Positions 5,368 through 8,963 of a stretch of DNA of 9,037 nucleotides are shown piece after piece. The first letter of the stretch is position 1. Each line of letters starts with the position of its first letter. A program made the position numbers and the translations under genes. Source of the stretch: a virus (taxonomy: Duplodnaviria > Heunggongvirae > Uroviricota > Caudoviricetes); IMG/VR virus record IMGVR_UViG_2778261463_000001, positions 1 through 9,037 of that record; one strand, 5' to 3'. The notes under the pieces were generated by a model. The model made no database searches, was not told where the DNA came from, and worked only from the letters and a program-made list of their open reading frames with translations.

Positions 5368-5420
5368 AATGTAGGATATCCAACATGTGAGTGTCAAGAG
5401 TTTATGTTGGTTATCCTACA
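5368..5420 (-). promoter_or_regulatory. OL/pL: leftward promoter (-35 TTGACA at 5397-5392, -10 TACATT at 5373-5368, 18-bp spacer) with two 16-bp dyad operators
   Basis: Operators TGTAGGATATCCAACA (5370-5385) and TGTTGGTTATCCTACA (5405-5420). The first is identical to OR1 in reverse complement. Promoter hexamers read on the minus strand. Confidence 0.6.
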
Positions 5421-5437
5421 TAAAAAGATAGGCTCAT

Positions 5438-5463
5438 AAAAAAACCGGGGATACCCCGGTTTT
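5438..5463 (-). terminator. Intrinsic terminator downstream of cI (bidirectional architecture)
   Basis: A7-CCGGGG-ATA-CCCCGG-T4 starting 20 nt past the cI stop. On the minus strand the 6-bp GC stem is followed by 7 U. Confidence 0.7.
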
Positions 5464-5483
5464 GCGATAGTGAGGAAGATGTG

Positions 5484-6137
5484 TCAAAAATCCATTATTA
5501 CTTGTTTGACAAGACCAACTATTCTGCAGTTCTCACCGCATTCAATAGTTTTATAGTTAGGATTTAGTGGGACGAGATACCTGTTCGGCCAGTCCTCAAC
5601 AAATTTTTTGAGTGTCGCTTCTTGCCCACCATTGATATGGGCAACAACGATTTTTCCGTTAATACACTCTGTATCAATAATATCTGGCTCTACGATAACG
5701 ATAGAACCTTCTGGTATCGATGGTGAGCCGAGGGGATTGGTCATTGAATCACCACGGACCCGTAGTGCAAATGCCATTTCTGATACAAGGGCGGTAGTAT
5801 AAACCCACTCTTCAGCATCTTCTTTCCTGACACCAGGCTCCGTCATTGTCCATGAACCCGCCTGAACCCACGAGATGAGGGGGACTTTTTTAACTGCGAA
5901 TATTTCAGGTTTTAGATTTATCTTTGGTTCAGGCGAGCCTTTTCCGCTAACAAGCCACAGAGGATCGCATTTAAGTGCGTTGGCTAGGGCTTGAAGGTTG
6001 GCTCCATTTGGTTGGTAGTCGTCCTTTTCCCATCCAGTAACCGTGACACGGTTCACACCAGTCAAATCAGCCAGTGCTTGTTGTGTCAGGTTCAGTTCTT
6101 TTCGCCTTTGGCGAATACGATCACTCATGTTCATCAT
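5484..6137 (-). CDS. cI: CI-type prophage repressor: N-terminal HTH (XRE family) plus C-terminal S24 LexA-like autopeptidase
   Basis: 217-aa ORF. HTH region LTQQALADLTGVNRVTVTGWE. Probable Ala-Gly cleavage site (VQAGSW). Catalytic Ser in RGDSM and downstream Lys (TLKKF). Divergent from cro across an operator region. Confidence 0.85.
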   Translation of the reverse strand: MMNMSDRIRQRRKELNLTQQALADLTGVNRVTVTGWEKDDYQPNGANLQALANALKCDPLWLVSGKGSPEPKINLKPEIFAVKKVPLISWVQAGSWTMTEPGVRKEDAEEWVYTTALVSEMAFALRVRGDSMTNPLGSPSIPEGSIVIVEPDIIDTECINGKIVVAHINGGQEATLKKFVEDWPNRYLVPLNPNYKTIECGENCRIVGLVKQVIMDF

Positions 6138-6232: not shown

Positions 6233-6430
6233 ATGCGGAAATCCGACGTGATTAATTATTTCGGCGGAGTTTGTAAAACCGCCGAAGCCCTAGGTATTAA
6301 GCATCCGTCTGTTTCAGAGTGGCCTGAGATTATTCCTGAAGGCCGAGCGTACCAGTTAGAAAAAATTACTAACGGGAAACTGAAAGTTGACGTGTCTTTA
6401 TATCAAAAGACTAACAGTGCTGCGGCATAA
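6233..6430 (+). CDS. cro: Cro-like small HTH regulator (YdaS-type)
   Basis: 65-aa ORF with GGGAGA 5 nt upstream of the ATG, directly downstream of pR. HTH-like segment CKTAEALGIKHPSVSEW. Confidence 0.75.
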   Translation: MRKSDVINYFGGVCKTAEALGIKHPSVSEWPEIIPEGRAYQLEKITNGKLKVDVSLYQKTNSAAA

Positions 6431-6457: not shown

Positions 6458-7036
6458 GTGGGTAAAGAACCTGAATGGAAAGTTGATAAACAACCAGCAT
6501 GGCTGGTGGCAGCAATACGAAGAACGATTGCTGATTTACCTCATGGCTATGAGGAAGCAGCAGAAATTCTTGGTTTGTATAAATCTGATGATATCACCCC
6601 AGCAAAAGATCAATTGCATAACAGACTGCGTAGCGGTGGGGATCAAATTTTTCCACTTGAGTGGGCCATGGTTTTACAGGATGCCAGTGGTACCAGGCAT
6701 GTAACAGATGCAATAGCCCGTCGTAGTAATGGGGTGTTTGTGCCGCTGGTGGTCATTGATGACATTGACAATGGTGACATTAATCAGCGGCTGATGGAGT
6801 CAATAGAATGGATTGGCAAGCATTCCCAGTACTTACGCAAGGCAACTGCTGATGGAGTTATTGACCTGGCTGAGCGTGAGCAAATCGAAGAGAACAGCTA
6901 CCAAGTAATGGCGAAGTGGCAGGAGCATTTAACACTGTTATTTCGTGTTTTTTGTGCGCCGGAAAAGAGTGACGCCCGCGAGTGTGCAGCTCCGGGCGTC
7001 GTGGCGTTTTGTGTCTGTGGAGAAACTAACGCATGA
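6458..7036 (+). CDS. CII-like regulator (YdaT-type), 192 aa
   Basis: GTG start at 6458 with GAGGA 8 nt upstream. Sits immediately after cro, as in the cI/YdaS/YdaT modules of Rac-like prophages. Family assignment from memory. Confidence 0.6.
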   Translation: MGKEPEWKVDKQPAWLVAAIRRTIADLPHGYEEAAEILGLYKSDDITPAKDQLHNRLRSGGDQIFPLEWAMVLQDASGTRHVTDAIARRSNGVFVPLVVIDDIDNGDINQRLMESIEWIGKHSQYLRKATADGVIDLAEREQIEENSYQVMAKWQEHLTLLFRVFCAPEKSDARECAAPGVVAFCVCGETNA

Positions 7037-8103
7037 ACAGTTTAACGGCAAATAACCGTTGGTCGCAACAGCTGGTGGTCCGCGTGGCTGAACACCTGTT
7101 GTTACGGCATGAATGCAGATTACCAAATCACCTGGCTGTAAGTAACCACAGAGAACTTTACCTGACTGTGGGGGGCGAGTTGTGCAGGAACTTAACCGCT
7201 GGTTTCGTGACGGAAGAGGGCTTTATGTTCATGTTATTCGTTGGGAACCAGAAACACAGCGCGTTATCTATCTTCGCAAAGACTACCCGCATGAGTGCTT
7301 TAGTCCTTTGTGGAAATTCAGGCGTGATTTTGTTGAGTGTGAAGGACCACCAGCACATTGATTCTGCCATTCCGGGACGTTACACTGTTCAGGCACCTTA
7401 TAAAGCGGGTGCCGGGATTGGCGTCCTGAAATTGATTACTGAGCATAACCGCGCTCATGCGGTTTTTTCGTGTCATGAGCATTGCTACGCCCAAATTATG
7501 GTGGGGCGTACAGGGCCGACTTCGGTCGGGCCGGGTTCGGTAGTCTCCGGTAACGCCAACCCTGTACGTCTCACCACCTCTGTGATTGGCGTCCCATGTG
7601 GTGAGTTTTCTAAAAAACTGACTACCGGGGCTGTCACCATGACTACTCTCCCAACCCTCTCTCAACCTGAAATTGCCATCGTTGATGGTCAGGCTGTTAC
7701 ATCTTCTTTGGCTGTTGCTGACTTCTTCTCTAAACGTCATGACGATGTTCTGAAAAAGATCCGCATTTTGGATTGTTCTCCAGAGTTTTGTGCCCGCAAT
7801 TTTGCGGAGACATCAATTTTGGTACGCCAGCCCAACGGCGGTACTCGCAAACTTCCTTGCTACCAAATCACACGCGACGGTTTTGCGTTTCTTGCTATGG
7901 GTTTCACGGGTAAACGTGCTGCCCAGTTCAAAGAGGCATATATCAATGCCTTTAACCAGATGGAGAAACAGCTTTCAAAGCCCGCTGTACCGAGCGACGT
8001 TGCACATAACGCCAGCGTTCTCTGTTCCTACATTTCATCAATTCATCAGGTCTGGCTGCAGCAGCTTTATCCCGAAAGGGAAGGTCGAGATCACTATCAG
8101 TAA
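7033..8103 (+). CDS. Rha-family phage regulatory protein (long form): ~200 N-terminal residues of unknown function fused in frame to a C-terminal pRha domain
   Basis: 356-codon open frame whose ATG overlaps the cII-like stop (ATGA at 7033-7036). Residues from about 7639 match the Rha core (KRHDDVLKKIR, ITRDGFAFLAMGFTGKRAAQFKEAYINAFNQME). Alternative starts at 7498 or 7639 would give 201 or 154 aa. Confidence 0.5.
   Translation: MNSLTANNRWSQQLVVRVAEHLLLRHECRLPNHLAVSNHRELYLTVGGELCRNLTAGFVTEEGFMFMLFVGNQKHSALSIFAKTTRMSALVLCGNSGVILLSVKDHQHIDSAIPGRYTVQAPYKAGAGIGVLKLITEHNRAHAVFSCHEHCYAQIMVGRTGPTSVGPGSVVSGNANPVRLTTSVIGVPCGEFSKKLTTGAVTMTTLPTLSQPEIAIVDGQAVTSSLAVADFFSKRHDDVLKKIRILDCSPEFCARNFAETSILVRQPNGGTRKLPCYQITRDGFAFLAMGFTGKRAAQFKEAYINAFNQMEKQLSKPAVPSDVAHNASVLCSYISSIHQVWLQQLYPEREGRDHYQ
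7447..7468 (+). terminator. Terminator-like hairpin (AACCGC-gctcat-GCGGTT followed by a T-run) inside the long ORF
   Basis: 6-bp stem with 6-nt loop; six consecutive T at 7463-7468. Weak stem, and it lies inside an open reading frame, so it may be fortuitous. Confidence 0.25.
7499..7576 (+). other. Strand-specific RNA stem-loop element: 17-bp closing stem with two G-U pairs enclosing a CCGAC-UUCG-GUCGG tetraloop hairpin
   Basis: 7499-7515 pairs with 7560-7576 (15 Watson-Crick plus 2 G-T pairs, so it folds only as plus-strand RNA). Inner hairpin 7516-7529. Tandem imperfect 15-nt repeat GGGCCGACTTCGGTC / GGGCCGGGTTCGGTA. Confidence 0.4.
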
Positions 8104-8153: not shown

Positions 8154-8963
8154 ATGAATAATCTGATAGTTATTGATGGTATTGAAGTTCGTCGTGATGC
8201 TTATGGGCGTTACAGCCTGAACGATCTGCACAGGGCAGCCGGGGGAGAACAAAAAAACCGCCCGAAATACTGGCTCTCCAATAAGCAAACCTGTGAATTG
8301 ATTGAACAACTTTTCACCGAGGGTGAAATTCCGCCTCTGGAACAAAATCAACCAGTTAGCGTCATTAATGGCGGAAATAACCAGGGGACGTATGTCTGCA
8401 AAGAACTGGTGTATGCCTATGCAATGTGGATCAGCCCGTCATTCCATCTGAAGGTGATCCGTACTTTCGATATGGTAACCAGCGCACCGGAAAAATTATC
8501 CGGGCAGGCTGCTGACAAGATGCAGGCTGGTGTGATTCTGCTGGACTTTATGCGCCGGGAGTTAAACCTGTCTAACTCTTCAGTGCTTGGTGCCTGTCAG
8601 AAACTCCAGGAGGCTGTTGGCTTACCGAATCTGGCACCGCGCTATGCCATTGATGCTCCTGCTGACGCGCCTGATGGCTCAAGTCGCCCTACGCTGTCGC
8701 TGAGTGCACTGCTGAAACAGTATGGTATCCGCCTTACGGCTAATCAGGCATATCACCAGATGGCGAAGCTGGGGATCGTTGAACAACGCGAACGATACAG
8801 CCGTACCACGATTAACAACATCAAAAAATTCTGGTCGCTGACAGCGAAAGGTTGCATGTTCGGCAAGAACATCACCAGTCCCGCAAATCCGCGCGAGACG
8901 CAGCCGCATTTCTTCGAATCCCGATTCCCTGAGCTGTTAAAGTTGCTCGATACCGTTCATTGA
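8154..8963 (+). CDS. KilA-N domain protein (putative antirepressor or host-interference protein), 269 aa
   Basis: AGGAG 9 nt upstream of the ATG. N-terminal KilA-N hallmarks: VIDGIEVRRDAYGRYSLNDLHRAAGGE...NRPKYWL and ELVYAYAMWISPSFHLKVIRTFD. Confidence 0.75.
   Translation: MNNLIVIDGIEVRRDAYGRYSLNDLHRAAGGEQKNRPKYWLSNKQTCELIEQLFTEGEIPPLEQNQPVSVINGGNNQGTYVCKELVYAYAMWISPSFHLKVIRTFDMVTSAPEKLSGQAADKMQAGVILLDFMRRELNLSNSSVLGACQKLQEAVGLPNLAPRYAIDAPADAPDGSSRPTLSLSALLKQYGIRLTANQAYHQMAKLGIVEQRERYSRTTINNIKKFWSLTAKGCMFGKNITSPANPRETQPHFFESRFPELLKLLDTVH

Follow-up and report, generated by a model that had tools for sequence, protein, structure and literature searches.

Positions 7358-7641 of the window (the whole 9,037-nucleotide stretch of DNA that was analysed) are an RNA switch of the immI type, located in a lambdoid prophage of E. 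coli between a DUF4222 gene and rha. The module, which is recognisable in its sequence, its secondary structure, the covariation of its homologues, its complementarities and the gene model around it, contains a C4-type antisense RNA and, upstream of it, an IsrK-type small RNA (Table 1), and we consider it very probable that it regulates rha from the ATG at 7639. We judge this stem-loop module to be real and functional, but it is an already known phage regulatory device.

Table 1. Positions of the RNA module, its parts and the adjoining genes in the window
Feature	Position	Strand	Basis
Separate DUF4222 gene, 59 aa	7182-7361	+	Pfam DUF4222, 51.1 bits (gathering 27)
Probable sigma-70 promoter	-35 TTGATT 7358-7363, 17-nt spacer, -10 TACACT 7381-7386	+	
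IsrK-type small RNA	7393-7469	+	Rfam isrK RF01394, 59.3 bits, E 5e-11
a1 site, TTGGCGT, inside the IsrK-type RNA	7418-7424	+	Complement of C4 a' 7553-7559
b1 site, GATTACTGAGC	7434-7444	+	Complement of the b' loop, including G-U pairs
Intrinsic terminator of the IsrK-type RNA, 7-bp stem, 4-nt loop and T6	7447-7470	+	Terminator scan
C4-type antisense RNA gene	7494-7581	+	Rfam C4 RF01695, 82.3 bits, E 1.8e-15
Outer 17-bp stem, enclosing both hairpins	7499-7515 with 7560-7576	+	Base-by-base check
Hairpin 1, CCGAC-UUCG-GUCGG, inside the outer stem	7516-7529	+	Base-by-base check
Hairpin 2, 5-bp stem GCCGG/CCGGU and 12-nt loop	7530-7551	+	Rfam structure line
b' loop of hairpin 2, GUUCGGUAGUCU	7535-7546	+	
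a' unpaired 8-nt segment, AACGCCAA	7552-7559	+	
a2 target, TTGGCGT, in the rha leader	7586-7592	+	7-nt Watson-Crick complement of a'
b2 target, GACTACCGGG	7620-7629 (feature 7620-7630)	+	10-nt complement of the b' loop
rha, Rha-family regulatory protein, 154 aa, proposed regulated gene	7639-8103	+	Pfam Phage_pRha, TIGR02681

Two structured RNAs ahead of rha

The original prediction had drawn attention to a 17-bp stem containing two G-U pairs, to a CCGAC-UUCG-GUCGG hairpin inside it and to a hairpin followed by T6 further upstream, and had read the ensemble as a plus-strand signal acting at the level of the mRNA. The stem and its inner hairpin proved to be present exactly as described, the former with 17 consecutive pairs, of which 15 are Watson-Crick and two are G-U (G7504-U7571 and G7506-U7569), and a terminator scan recovered the upstream hairpin. 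The notion of a generic mRNA-level signal, however, was not supported: the stem is the scaffold of a discrete C4-family antisense RNA gene. The C4 antisense RNA family (RF01695) is that of the c4 RNAs of P1 and P7 and of the CI RNA of P4, and its covariance model matched the window over its entire length (model positions 1-87 of 87), well above the gathering threshold of 45 bits. The functional parts of C4, both of which had previously been overlooked, are hairpin 2, whose stem contributes a third strand-specific G-U pair (G7530-U7551), and the unpaired segment behind it. Neither of the two RNA families had been named in the original prediction, nor had the pairing of loops with targets that accounts for the function.

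That the element is a plus-strand RNA, as had been proposed, follows from the G-U pairs, the covariance models (neither the C4 model nor the isrK model RF01394 matched the minus strand), the terminator, the promoter and the target sites. Folding energy was rejected as strand evidence because both strands fold well (z of -2.6 for the plus strand and -5.0 for the minus strand). Any likeness to tRNA or tmRNA goes no further than a helix resembling an acceptor stem and a 3' ACC, ARAGORN having returned zero genes in the window, and the preceding stretch, 7037-7181, gave no sign of a further RNA, with a fold that is not unusual (z of -0.14) and no Rfam match.

The ends of the mature C4 RNA can be predicted by alignment with P1, in which C4 is annotated as a 77-nt RNA from G4344 to ACC4420 (locus L125). 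The counterpart in the window extends from G7500 to ACC7578, corresponding to a predicted mature RNA of 79 nt. The annotated P1 termini line up with the A-U/G-G at 7497-7500 and with the CACCACC whose last base is 7578, and P1 and the window have the same U/G at the mature 5' end and the same ACC at the 3' end.

Upstream of C4, the isrK model was also matched over its full length (model positions 1-77 of 77; gathering threshold 50 bits). The predicted fold of this RNA has three hairpins, and its layout comprises a hairpin at 7393-7412, a hairpin with a1 in its loop, a single-stranded b1 and the terminator; it is the equivalent of the a1/b1 leader of P1 and of seqA of P4. The terminator stem at 7447-7464, AACCGCGCTCATGCGGTT, is followed by TTTTTT and represents the third hairpin of the isrK model. 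A terminator is found at the same place in the homologues, in P1 and in P4; in P1, as in the window, the terminator-like hairpin stands between b1 and C4. The c4-a1b1 model (RF03163) gave only a weak match at 7380-7432 (21.6 bits, under its gathering threshold of 46.7), in a stretch that the isrK model covers.

A probable promoter of the module lies at 7358-7386, and transcription from it would start at about 7393. A consensus promoter scan of 7000-7700 called no promoter, as the proposed boxes match the consensus at eight of 12 positions and the threshold of the scan is nine. The assignment is therefore based on a column-for-column alignment with the annotated P1 promoter P1c4 (formerly P51b; TTGACC/TATAGT) and on positional conservation, a TTGnnn / TAnnnT pair being present at a constant distance from a1 in 81 sequence-diverse loci. 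When the layout of the IsrK family was examined, the predicted promoter was positionally conserved, with C4 and then rha downstream.

Covariation of the stems and of the loops with their targets

The original prediction had pointed to homologues for the pairing potential of the stem, and there it is conserved. In a covariance-model alignment of 67 homologues, including P1 and P4, which is fitted to the structure and hence biased towards pairing, 99.7% of 1807 cells remained paired. Double-sided changes were found in 20 of the 27 pairs, with 359 compensatory cells in total, a level that none of 500 shuffles reached, and slid controls were 32-50% paired. Within this alignment, 15 of the 17 outer-stem pairs show double-sided changes, and compensatory changes affect four of the five pairs of hairpin 1 (24-36 of the 67 sequences). 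An outer stem of 14-19 bp folds in 59 of 60 distinct homologues, which present 45 different stem sequences.

Because the pattern with which the homologues were collected fixed CTTCGG, GCCGG, TTC and CCGGT, the invariance of the UUCG loop and of the other pattern bases is circular. An alignment of 60 homologues by MAFFT, evaluated with RNAalifold, recovered only 19 pairs, since length differences of 1 nt shifted the register of part of the 3' strand, and per-sequence folding and the covariance-model alignment were used in its place. The C4 element is conserved from the Enterobacteriaceae to Pseudomonas and Ralstonia, and the 1.3-kb region is matched in 3083 of 5426 complete E. coli genomes. A blastn search against phages did not reach P1 and P4, both of which were compared by accession.

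The loop and the unpaired segment of C4 have complements on both sides of the RNA. Between a1 and a', the match comprises 7 nt, all Watson-Crick (-10.5 kcal/mol), and a2 is positioned just after C4, like the annotated a2 of P1. The b' loop can pair with b1 over 11 nt (-15.7 kcal/mol) and, through 7536-7545, with b2 over 10 nt (-15.3 kcal/mol); these are its two longest complements within 7000-7800, b1 being the longest. The b2 site overlaps the Shine-Dalgarno sequence GGGG (7627-7630) upstream of the rha ATG.

Among the homologues, a1 co-varies with a', and the C4 loops co-vary with their targets. We compared 100 distinct loci, which between them carry 34 b' loop sequences and 28 a' sequences, and found a complement of at least 7 nt to the locus's own a' in both flanks of all 100, as against 14% with a non-self a'; for the b' loop, the downstream complement averaged 10.6 nt with the own loop and 6.7 nt with non-self loops. 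Locus L003, which lies outside this analysis, is recognised as C4 at 67 bits by model R1. For 40 of the 47 distinct loop combinations, the strongest match for b2 starts 30-44 nt after C4 and reaches into an AGG, GAG or GGG located 5-10 nt before the ATG. The b' loop itself is hypervariable (1.09 bits per position, with 34 distinct loops among the homologues), and a' is the most variable position class in the C4 RNA (1.45 bits).

These data also bear on the simplest view of the structures, namely that they are a chance inverted repeat, or a plain terminator or attenuator of the pR operon that involves no trans-acting RNA. A hairpin with a T-run is indeed a generic terminator, and shuffled sequences contain about 0.6 terminator-like sites per 700 nt by chance. 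Nevertheless, we assign this view virtually no probability in the face of covariance-model E-values of the order of 1e-15 and 5e-11, of the covariation in most of the pairs, of the loop-target co-variation across the 100 loci, and of the conservation from Enterobacteriaceae to Pseudomonas and Ralstonia.

Coding frames and the Ash family

The original prediction had placed the structure in the linker of a Rha-type open reading frame, and had suggested alternatively that the region is a non-coding leader with Rha starting at 7639. Only the second suggestion was borne out. The 356-aa ORF at 7033-8103 is an open frame that lies over the DUF4222 gene (which is in another frame), the two RNA genes and rha; since DUF4222 is a separate gene in a different frame, the ORF is not one gene. 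Consistent with this, variation within 7183-7302 falls on the third positions of the DUF4222 frame, and not on those of the long ORF, in 24 close homologues. Third-codon-position variation in the rha frame begins just after 7639, and 7423-7662 displays no third-position pattern of variation.

The ORF at 7639-8103 by itself scores 96.5 bits with Phage_pRha and 93.5 bits with TIGR02681, and is followed by a KilA-N gene; by homology, the Rha protein may act as an anti-repressor. In other lineages, the first ORF after C4 encodes Rha, a P4-epsilon-like protein (PF25738), DUF3077 or DUF6124.

Several observations could nonetheless be taken to mean that 7033-8103 encodes one 356-aa Rha/Ash protein, and that the RNA structure is incidental or an mRNA pausing or stability signal. 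The frame contains no stop, PF10554 (Phage_ASH) matches residues 117-212 at 43 bits (cut-off 26), PGAP and several phage records annotate 'Rha' proteins of 322-387 aa across the region, and 'Rha/Ash domain' proteins have been described in Stx phages (PMC8951638). The Ash match, however, spans nucleotides 7381-7668 (46.7 bits when this stretch is translated), which is exactly isrK, C4 and a2/b2, and in P4 the same Pfam model falls on an obsolete 137-aa 'cI' CDS over the CI RNA. CI of P4 is an RNA, and its reading as a protein is obsolete; the true epsilon of P4 falls into PF25738, a different family.

Neither does the region evolve as a protein-coding sequence. C4 lacks codon periodicity (0.78/0.79/0.78 bits by codon position), as does 7423-7662; loop lengths in C4 vary by single nucleotides among homologues; the C4 AUG stands in all three phases relative to the downstream ATG, in 29, 25 and 5 loci; a stop is present no more than 39 nt upstream of the regulated ATG, in its frame, in 26 of 65 related loci; and the C4 frame is broken by stops in five of 22 lineages. 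Together with the coding of 7182-7361 in the DUF4222 frame, this leaves the single long protein with very little probability. The Phage_ASH region does not evolve as protein by codon bias, indels or stops, despite an HMM score above the cut-off, and what Pfam models as 'Ash' looks like C4 and isrK RNA genes read as protein.

Known switches and the proposed working of the module

The immI region of P1 and P7 (c4 - icd - ant1/ant2) carries a C4 RNA of the same Rfam family, which scores 68.8 bits in P1 compared with 82.3 bits in the window. The order of the elements is identical: promoter P1c4, a1, b1, C4, a2, b2 and the first ORF, followed in P1 by the anti-repressor gene and kilA, and in both cases a KilA-N gene stands after the regulated gene. 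Spacing is also alike, with 32 nt from the -10 box to a1 in both and 10-11 nt from the end of b2 to the ATG. In P1, C4 represses the synthesis of Ant (PMC8546580). Unlike P1, in which icd lies between b2 and ant, the window has b2 directly before the Rha-family gene, with neither an icd-like ORF nor an Ant1/Ant2 pair, and the coupling logic may therefore differ. The a' and b' sequences differ as well, and hence so does specificity. Furthermore, no C1-type operator is evident in the window, and its module forms part of the rightward early operon of a lambdoid prophage that is integrated and has a cI/cro/ymfL region, whereas P1 is a plasmid prophage. The cI-like repressor of the window is at 5484-6137.

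The isrK-orf45(STnc1160)-anrP region of Gifsy-1, whose RNA family is the one matched full-length and above threshold in the window, has the same succession of parts: first a small RNA that has a promoter of its own and a terminator that leaks, then a processed RNA that is stable, and finally an anti-repressor-like gene. In Gifsy-1, IsrK turns on anrP, and the compensatory mutants G28/C162 and G31/C159 prove IsrK pairing (Hershko-Shalev et al. 2016, PMC4825925). G28 and G31 would correspond to a1 of the window, a mapping by position only, since the homologue in Salmonella phage 118970_sal3 aligns throughout but differs in a/b specificity. The published Gifsy-1 model is one of activation, by leader refolding and 'orf45' translation, whereas the classic P1 model is one of antisense repression; Hfq binding by IsrK and trans activation of the translation of the downstream gene are known only for Gifsy-1 (PMC4825925). 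In Gifsy-1, the C4-like stretch was taken to be an ORF of 45 codons that terminates at a stop of its own close to where anrP begins, while the corresponding frame in the window runs into rha, and Gifsy-1 belongs to Salmonella, whereas the window has an E. coli host and no AntQ-type gene.

In P4 (seqA - CI RNA (seqB) - seqC), the C4 model scores 74.9 bits on the cI region and the isrK model 60.8 bits on the seqA region, and, as in the window, one RNA has complementary sites on both its sides. The CI RNA of P4 is reported to end transcription of the replication operon prematurely, and the genes that come first after it are kil/eta and epsilon in place of rha.

By homology with these systems, we propose that the window's module involves RNA processing, translational repression and a decoy role for the IsrK-type RNA. 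Transcription would start near 7393, and many transcripts would end at the 7447-7470 terminator, giving an RNA of about 77 nt that displays a1 and b1, while C4 would be carried by read-through transcripts and by transcripts from pR. The C4 precursor of P1 is reported to be a substrate of RNase P (Hartmann et al. 1995, listed in PMC11143913); if P1 is a guide, this enzyme would free C4 between U7499 and G7500, the mature 3' end being ACC7578. The 17-bp stem and the UUCG hairpin may form a rigid scaffold that presents the b' loop and a' for pairing with b2 and a2 on the rha leader. Because b2 overlaps the rha ribosome-binding site, C4 is proposed to block rha translation, and it would probably also bring about Rho-dependent polarity on the downstream sequence. 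Since a1 and b1 are copies of the C4 targets, the IsrK-type RNA might titrate C4 or remodel the leader and thereby turn rha on.

We lean towards the block of translation as the primary output of C4. It could instead act mainly as in P4, by terminating transcription at 7447-7470 or, Rho-dependently, further downstream, and not chiefly at the ribosome-binding site. Both Rfam models, C4 and isrK, also match in P4, whose CI RNA is reported (summary in PMC4825925) to terminate transcription prematurely by way of seqA and seqC; moreover, an intrinsic terminator directly follows b1 both in the window and in the homologues. The position of b2 over the Shine-Dalgarno sequence in 40 of the 47 loop combinations is, on the other hand, the arrangement of P1, whose annotation puts translational repression first, and we judge a mainly transcriptional output to be the less probable of the two, though one with a tangible chance. 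The two are not exclusive, as loss of translation in P1 leads to polarity on ant.

A smaller chance attaches to the possibility that the unprocessed leader is also translated, from an AUG at 7498 equivalent to that of orf45 and in frame with rha, to give a Rha of 201 aa or to let ribosomes open the rha start. The RNase P cut at U7499/G7500 would destroy this AUG, so that processing and translation would compete. In Gifsy-1, mutation of the orf45 AUGs or an early stop reduces the IsrK-dependent activation of anrP from 114-fold to 8-39-fold (PMC4825925), and the first AUG of orf45 coincides in position with the conserved one at the 5' end of C4. Of 68 loci, 62 keep this AUG. Its frame reaches the downstream ATG without meeting a stop in 57 of 66 loci, and in 17 of the 22 lineage representatives, whereas the two other frames do so in 21 and 6 loci; in the window, AUG 7498 shares its frame with ATG 7639, and no stop intervenes. 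The conserved A-U/G-G is, however, equally explained by the RNase P site, the annotated mature C4 of P1 starting at that very G, and AUG 7498 is preceded by no Shine-Dalgarno sequence and sits within the 17-bp stem. In addition, stops interrupt the frame in the five lineages mentioned above, the leader frame is not conserved relative to the downstream gene, C4 bears no codon-position signature, and the open frame may merely reflect G/C-rich, constrained stems. On balance we think such translation unlikely. It is less likely again that AUG 7498 is a genuine start codon and that the RNA is either cut by RNase P into a repressor or translated, as a rha-opening leader or as an 'Ash'-extended Rha of 201 aa. 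Were this so, RNase P and the ribosome would be in kinetic competition, which would serve as the input to the lysis-lysogeny decision, and the long Rha isoform would parallel the Ant1/Ant2 pair of P1.

Returning to C4 as an RNA regulator of rha, the module belongs with the phage immunity devices of textbook type (P1 c4, P4 CI RNA, Gifsy-1 IsrK), so that a further copy adds little, and its practical value is one of annotation. C4 and isrK RNA genes are unannotated in E. coli genomes and in many phage records, where over-long 'Rha' or 'anti-repressor' CDSs absorb both of them, and the RNA genes feed the Pfam 'Ash' family, which has served as a protein marker. The over-long CDS has, at least in the genome NZ_CP039298, pushed the neighbouring DUF4222 gene into pseudogene status. 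The hypervariability of the loop/target pairs, together with the presence of several copies per genome, suggests a specificity code by which prophages that share a host, Stx phages among them, would engage in cross-talk or stay insulated from one another; the sequence itself would be enough to read such a code.

RNA families upstream of rha and conservation of their structure

The window comes from a lambdoid E. coli prophage, of which it is the immunity and early-right region; it shares 98% identity with phage 1720a-02 and with an O111:H8 prophage. Scanning it with Rfam 15 at curated thresholds, we obtained full-length matches to the C4 antisense RNA (RF01695; 82.3 bits against a gathering threshold of 45, E 1.8e-15) and to isrK (RF01394; 59.3 bits against 50, E 5e-11). 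A c4-a1b1 match (RF03163, 7380–7432) was sub-threshold, and ARAGORN found no tRNA or tmRNA in the window. Because both full-length matches exceed their thresholds, we identify the 17-bp stem of the original prediction as the outer helix of a C4-type RNA, and the terminator at 7447–7470 as that of an IsrK-type small RNA. The element is therefore already known, since both families are curated and their prototypes have been studied experimentally.

Features of the immunity and early-right region (window positions)
Feature	Position	Strand	Remarks
cI-like LexA/S24 repressor	5484–6137	-	
P22-Cro-like gene	6233–6430	+	
YmfL	6458–7036	+	
DUF4222 ORF	7182–7361	+	
IsrK-type RNA	7393–7469	+	RF01394
a1 (TTGGCGT)	7418–7424		pairs with a', -10.5 kcal/mol
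b1	7434–7444		11 nt with b' loop, with G-U, -15.7 kcal/mol
Terminator stem	7447–7464		7 bp, then T6
C4-type RNA	7494–7581	+	RF01695
Outer stem	7499–7515 with 7560–7576		17 bp
First inner hairpin	7516–7529		CCGAC-UUCG-GUCGG
Second inner hairpin	7530–7551		
Unpaired segment	7552–7559		8 nt
a' (ACGCCAA)	7553–7559		
a2 (TTGGCGT)	7586–7592		pairs with a', -10.5 kcal/mol
b2	7620–7629		10 nt with b' loop, -15.3 kcal/mol
Rha domain, 3' of ATG 7639	7639–8103	+	
KilA-N protein	8154–8963	+	

A pair-by-pair check found the outer stem exactly as originally described, with 17 consecutive pairs, 15 Watson-Crick and two G-U (G7504-U7571 and G7506-U7569). The UUCG-tetraloop hairpin claimed within it and the upstream hairpin followed by T6 are likewise present, the latter also being reported by a terminator scan. 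The rest of the interior, absent from the original prediction, comprises a second hairpin (GCCGG, a 12-nt loop and CCGGU, closed by a further G-U pair) and, directly 3' of it, the unpaired segment AACGCCAA. Minimum free energy (plus strand, z = -2.6; minus strand, z = -5.0) did not indicate the functional strand.

With a degenerate pattern based on both inner hairpins, we collected 120 loci from IMG/VR and 120 from genomes; the pattern fixes CTTCGG, GCCGG, TTC and CCGGT, the invariance of which is by construction. When 60 distinct C4 sequences were folded individually, 59 formed an outer stem of 14–19 bp, with 45 different stem sequences. Using a covariance model built from 45 of these sequences, we aligned 67 sequences, P1 and P4 included; in this alignment, which is itself fitted to the structure, standard pairs make up 99.7% of 1807 alignment cells, and both-sided changes affect 20 of 27 pairs (359 cells), a level reached by none of 500 shuffles. 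Sliding the partners by 1–3 columns lowered pairing to 32–50%. The predicted pairing is thus clearly conserved in homologues, and the window contains a C4-family RNA gene with a conserved scaffold.

Target sites and relation to P1, P4 and Gifsy-1

The two unpaired segments of C4, a' and b', each have complements on both sides of the gene: a1 and b1 lie within the IsrK-type RNA, a2 and b2 in the rha leader. The b1 and b2 sites are the two longest b' complements within 7000–7800, and b2 extends into GGGG 7627–7630, 8 nt before ATG 7639. We compared loops and targets in 100 distinct loci, among which the b' loop occurs in 34 versions and the a' segment in 28. At least 7 nt complementary to a locus's own a' were present on both flanks in 100% of loci, versus 14% for a' from other loci, and own b' loops found a mean of 10.6 complementary nt downstream, versus 6.7 for non-self loops. 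The best b2 match begins 30–44 nt after C4 and ends in AGG, GAG or GGG 5–10 nt before an ATG in 40 of 47 distinct loop combinations; ATG 7639 is therefore the regulated start. The specificity loops and two target pairs vary together. One pair covers the ribosome-binding site of rha; the other is carried by the upstream small-RNA unit with its terminator. In 81 diverse loci this unit keeps a TTGnnn/TAnnnT pair at a fixed distance upstream of a1, a hairpin with a1 in its loop, single-stranded b1 and the terminator.

The order recorded for P1 in GenBank is promoter P1c4 (former P51b), a1, b1, the 77-nt C4 RNA, a2, b2, icd, ant1/ant2 and kilA, and P1 is matched by the same Rfam models as the window. 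TTGATT 7358–7363 and TACACT 7381–7386 align on the P1 -35 and -10 elements, while G7500, after A-U, aligns with the mature 5' end of P1 C4 and ACC7578 with its mature 3' end. Spacing is nearly identical (32 nt from -10 to a1 in both; 10–11 nt from b2 to ATG). P4 is likewise matched by both models, by C4 at the CI RNA and by isrK in the seqA region. In P1, Ant synthesis is repressed by c4 RNA (PMC8546580), and the C4 precursor is processed by RNase P (Hartmann et al. 1995, as cited in PMC11143913).

In Gifsy-1, the isrK promoter gives rise to a short IsrK RNA and to a translationally silent read-through isrK-orf45-anrP mRNA; IsrK activates anrP more than 100-fold in trans, C162 and C159 of "orf45" are the pairing partners of IsrK G28 and G31, the orf45 region yields STnc1160, a stable RNA produced by processing, and AnrP expression induces the prophage (Hershko-Shalev et al., PMC4825925). 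These authors themselves pointed out the likeness to P4 seqA and CI (PMC4825925). Mapping by position rather than on the exact Gifsy-1 sequence, we infer that G28 and G31 may correspond to G7420 and G7423 in a1, with their partners in a', and the first orf45 AUG to the AUG that is conserved where C4 begins.

By homology, transcription would start near 7393, adding to transcripts from pR, and partial termination at 7447–7470 would yield the IsrK-type RNA. RNase P would cut read-through RNA between U7499 and G7500, releasing C4, which would pair with a2 and b2, block translation of rha and probably exert polarity on the genes that follow. With its a1 and b1 sites, the IsrK-type RNA would sequester C4 or remodel the leader to turn on rha, the product of which would be an anti-repressor or inducer. 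The dominant output here may be a block of translation, as in P1, early termination of transcription, as in P4, or refolding of the leader together with translation of a leader ORF, as in Gifsy-1.

Gene model and annotation of the rha region

The useful outputs of the analysis are a corrected gene model and a side observation on the Pfam Ash family and on systematic mis-annotation. The 356-aa ORF 7033–8103(+) is uninterrupted, and PGAP and several submitters label it, or 288–387-aa versions, as one "Rha" protein or "anti-repressor". Judged by sequence comparison, this annotation is wrong, because of codon-position variation, the entropy pattern of C4, and the phases, stops and loop lengths found among homologues. 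Among 24 distinct close homologues, variation from about 7663 on is concentrated in the third positions of rha codons (e.g., 0.50/0.05/0.06 bits); at 7183–7302 it follows the third codon positions of DUF4222 rather than those of the long ORF; and at 7423–7662, where the 1.1 kb varies most, it has no codon periodicity. In 47 homologues of identical geometry, C4 entropy by codon position is 0.78/0.79/0.78 bits; what separates positions is instead their structural role in the RNA (1.45 in a', 1.09 in the b' loop and 0.85–0.97 in the stems).

From the AUG at the C4 5' end to the regulated ATG, the phase is 0, 2 or 1 in 29, 25 and 5 cases, respectively, and 26 loci have an in-frame stop no more than 39 nt upstream of that ATG (59–65 distinct loci); C4 loops of homologues also differ in length by single nucleotides. 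The original placement of the stem inside a protein-coding Rha linker is not supported, as codon periodicity is lacking in 7423–7662 and in C4 and the frame relation is not kept. The second alternative of the original prediction, in which the stretch does not code for Rha and 7639 is the start of rha, is borne out by the variation pattern, the phases and the b2–SD–ATG geometry. Conceivably, the leader is translated from the AUG at the C4 5' end and, in this phage, fused in frame to Rha: that frame is open through C4 in 57 of 66 loci, versus 21 and 6 for the other two frames, although it contains stops in 5 of 22 lineages. In the corrected model, rha starts at ATG 7639.

The specificity-bearing stretch 7423–7662, which contains b1, the C4 loops, a2 and b2 and varies more than the rest of the region, lies between flanking genes that are nearly identical in close relatives, a pattern that looks like diversifying, heteroimmunity-type specificity. 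The KilA-N gene after rha mirrors the P1 order c4-icd-ant-kilA. An unassigned 145-nt stretch at 7033–7181 is highly conserved. ATG 7033 shares bases with the stop codon of ymfL (ATGA), an arrangement suggestive of translational coupling, but the frame of this ATG has no stop before 8103. The RNA fold of this stretch is unremarkable (z -0.14), and it has no Rfam match. Just 3' of the cI-like gene, a strong GC hairpin with an A-run and a T-run at its sides (about 5440–5466) forms the center of a sub-threshold "Termite-leu" match (5396–5478; 21.7 bits against a gathering threshold of 51); this is most simply a bidirectional terminator and not a member of that RNA family.

Pfam PF10554 ("Phage_ASH / Ash protein family") covers exactly isrK, C4 and a2/b2 (window 7381–7668, 43–47 bits). 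In P4 (locus L124, 8330–8521(-)) it falls on the obsolete 137-aa "cI" CDS overlying the CI RNA, and P4 epsilon proper belongs to PF25738. PF10554 seems to have been built on translations of RNA genes. It has been taken as a P4 epsilon marker in published work (PMC8628076), and "Rha/Ash domain" proteins have been described in Stx phages (PMC8951638).

Under both automated and manual annotation, "Rha" CDSs of 322–387 aa span the DUF4222 gene and both RNA genes in the window (7033–8103) and in three other loci (L001 7134–8297, L126 1733–2747, L127 1141–2292). In NZ_CP039298, PGAP marks DUF4222 as an incomplete pseudogene because an over-long Rha CDS is called across it. In Salmonella phage 118970_sal3 (L128, 346–669), one extra nucleotide compared with the E. 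coli sequences disrupts DUF4222 and creates a 108-aa chimeric ORF, annotated "putative antirepressor".

Distribution and tandem copies

Of 5426 complete E. coli genomes, 3083 contain matches to the 1.3-kb region, with a median of 2 and a maximum of 8 sites in each. Matches to the RNA module occur in 180 phage records, among them many Stx phages, SfV, P88 and mEp460; among the matches listed, none carries an RNA annotation of the module. The covariance model recognizes 63 of 80 genome loci as true C4, mainly in Pseudomonas, with others in Erwinia, Serratia, Kosakonia, Ralstonia, Zoogloea, Achromobacter and Xanthomonadales genera. The first regulated ORF varies by lineage (Rha, P4-epsilon-like derepression proteins, DUF3077, DUF6124, or unknown small proteins).

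Some loci contain two or three tandem C4 genes, 120–1570 nt apart (L093 1194–2051, L152 7366–7851, L049 7051 and 7920; also L119, L071, L129, L153, L155 and L204). The a' and b' loops differ between copies in the three-copy arrays and also in L071 and L049, and the two copies of L119 differ by a single base, in a'. L049 contains two complete isrK-C4-rha modules, the first C4 being identical to that of the window. Such tandem copies may represent stacked specificities.
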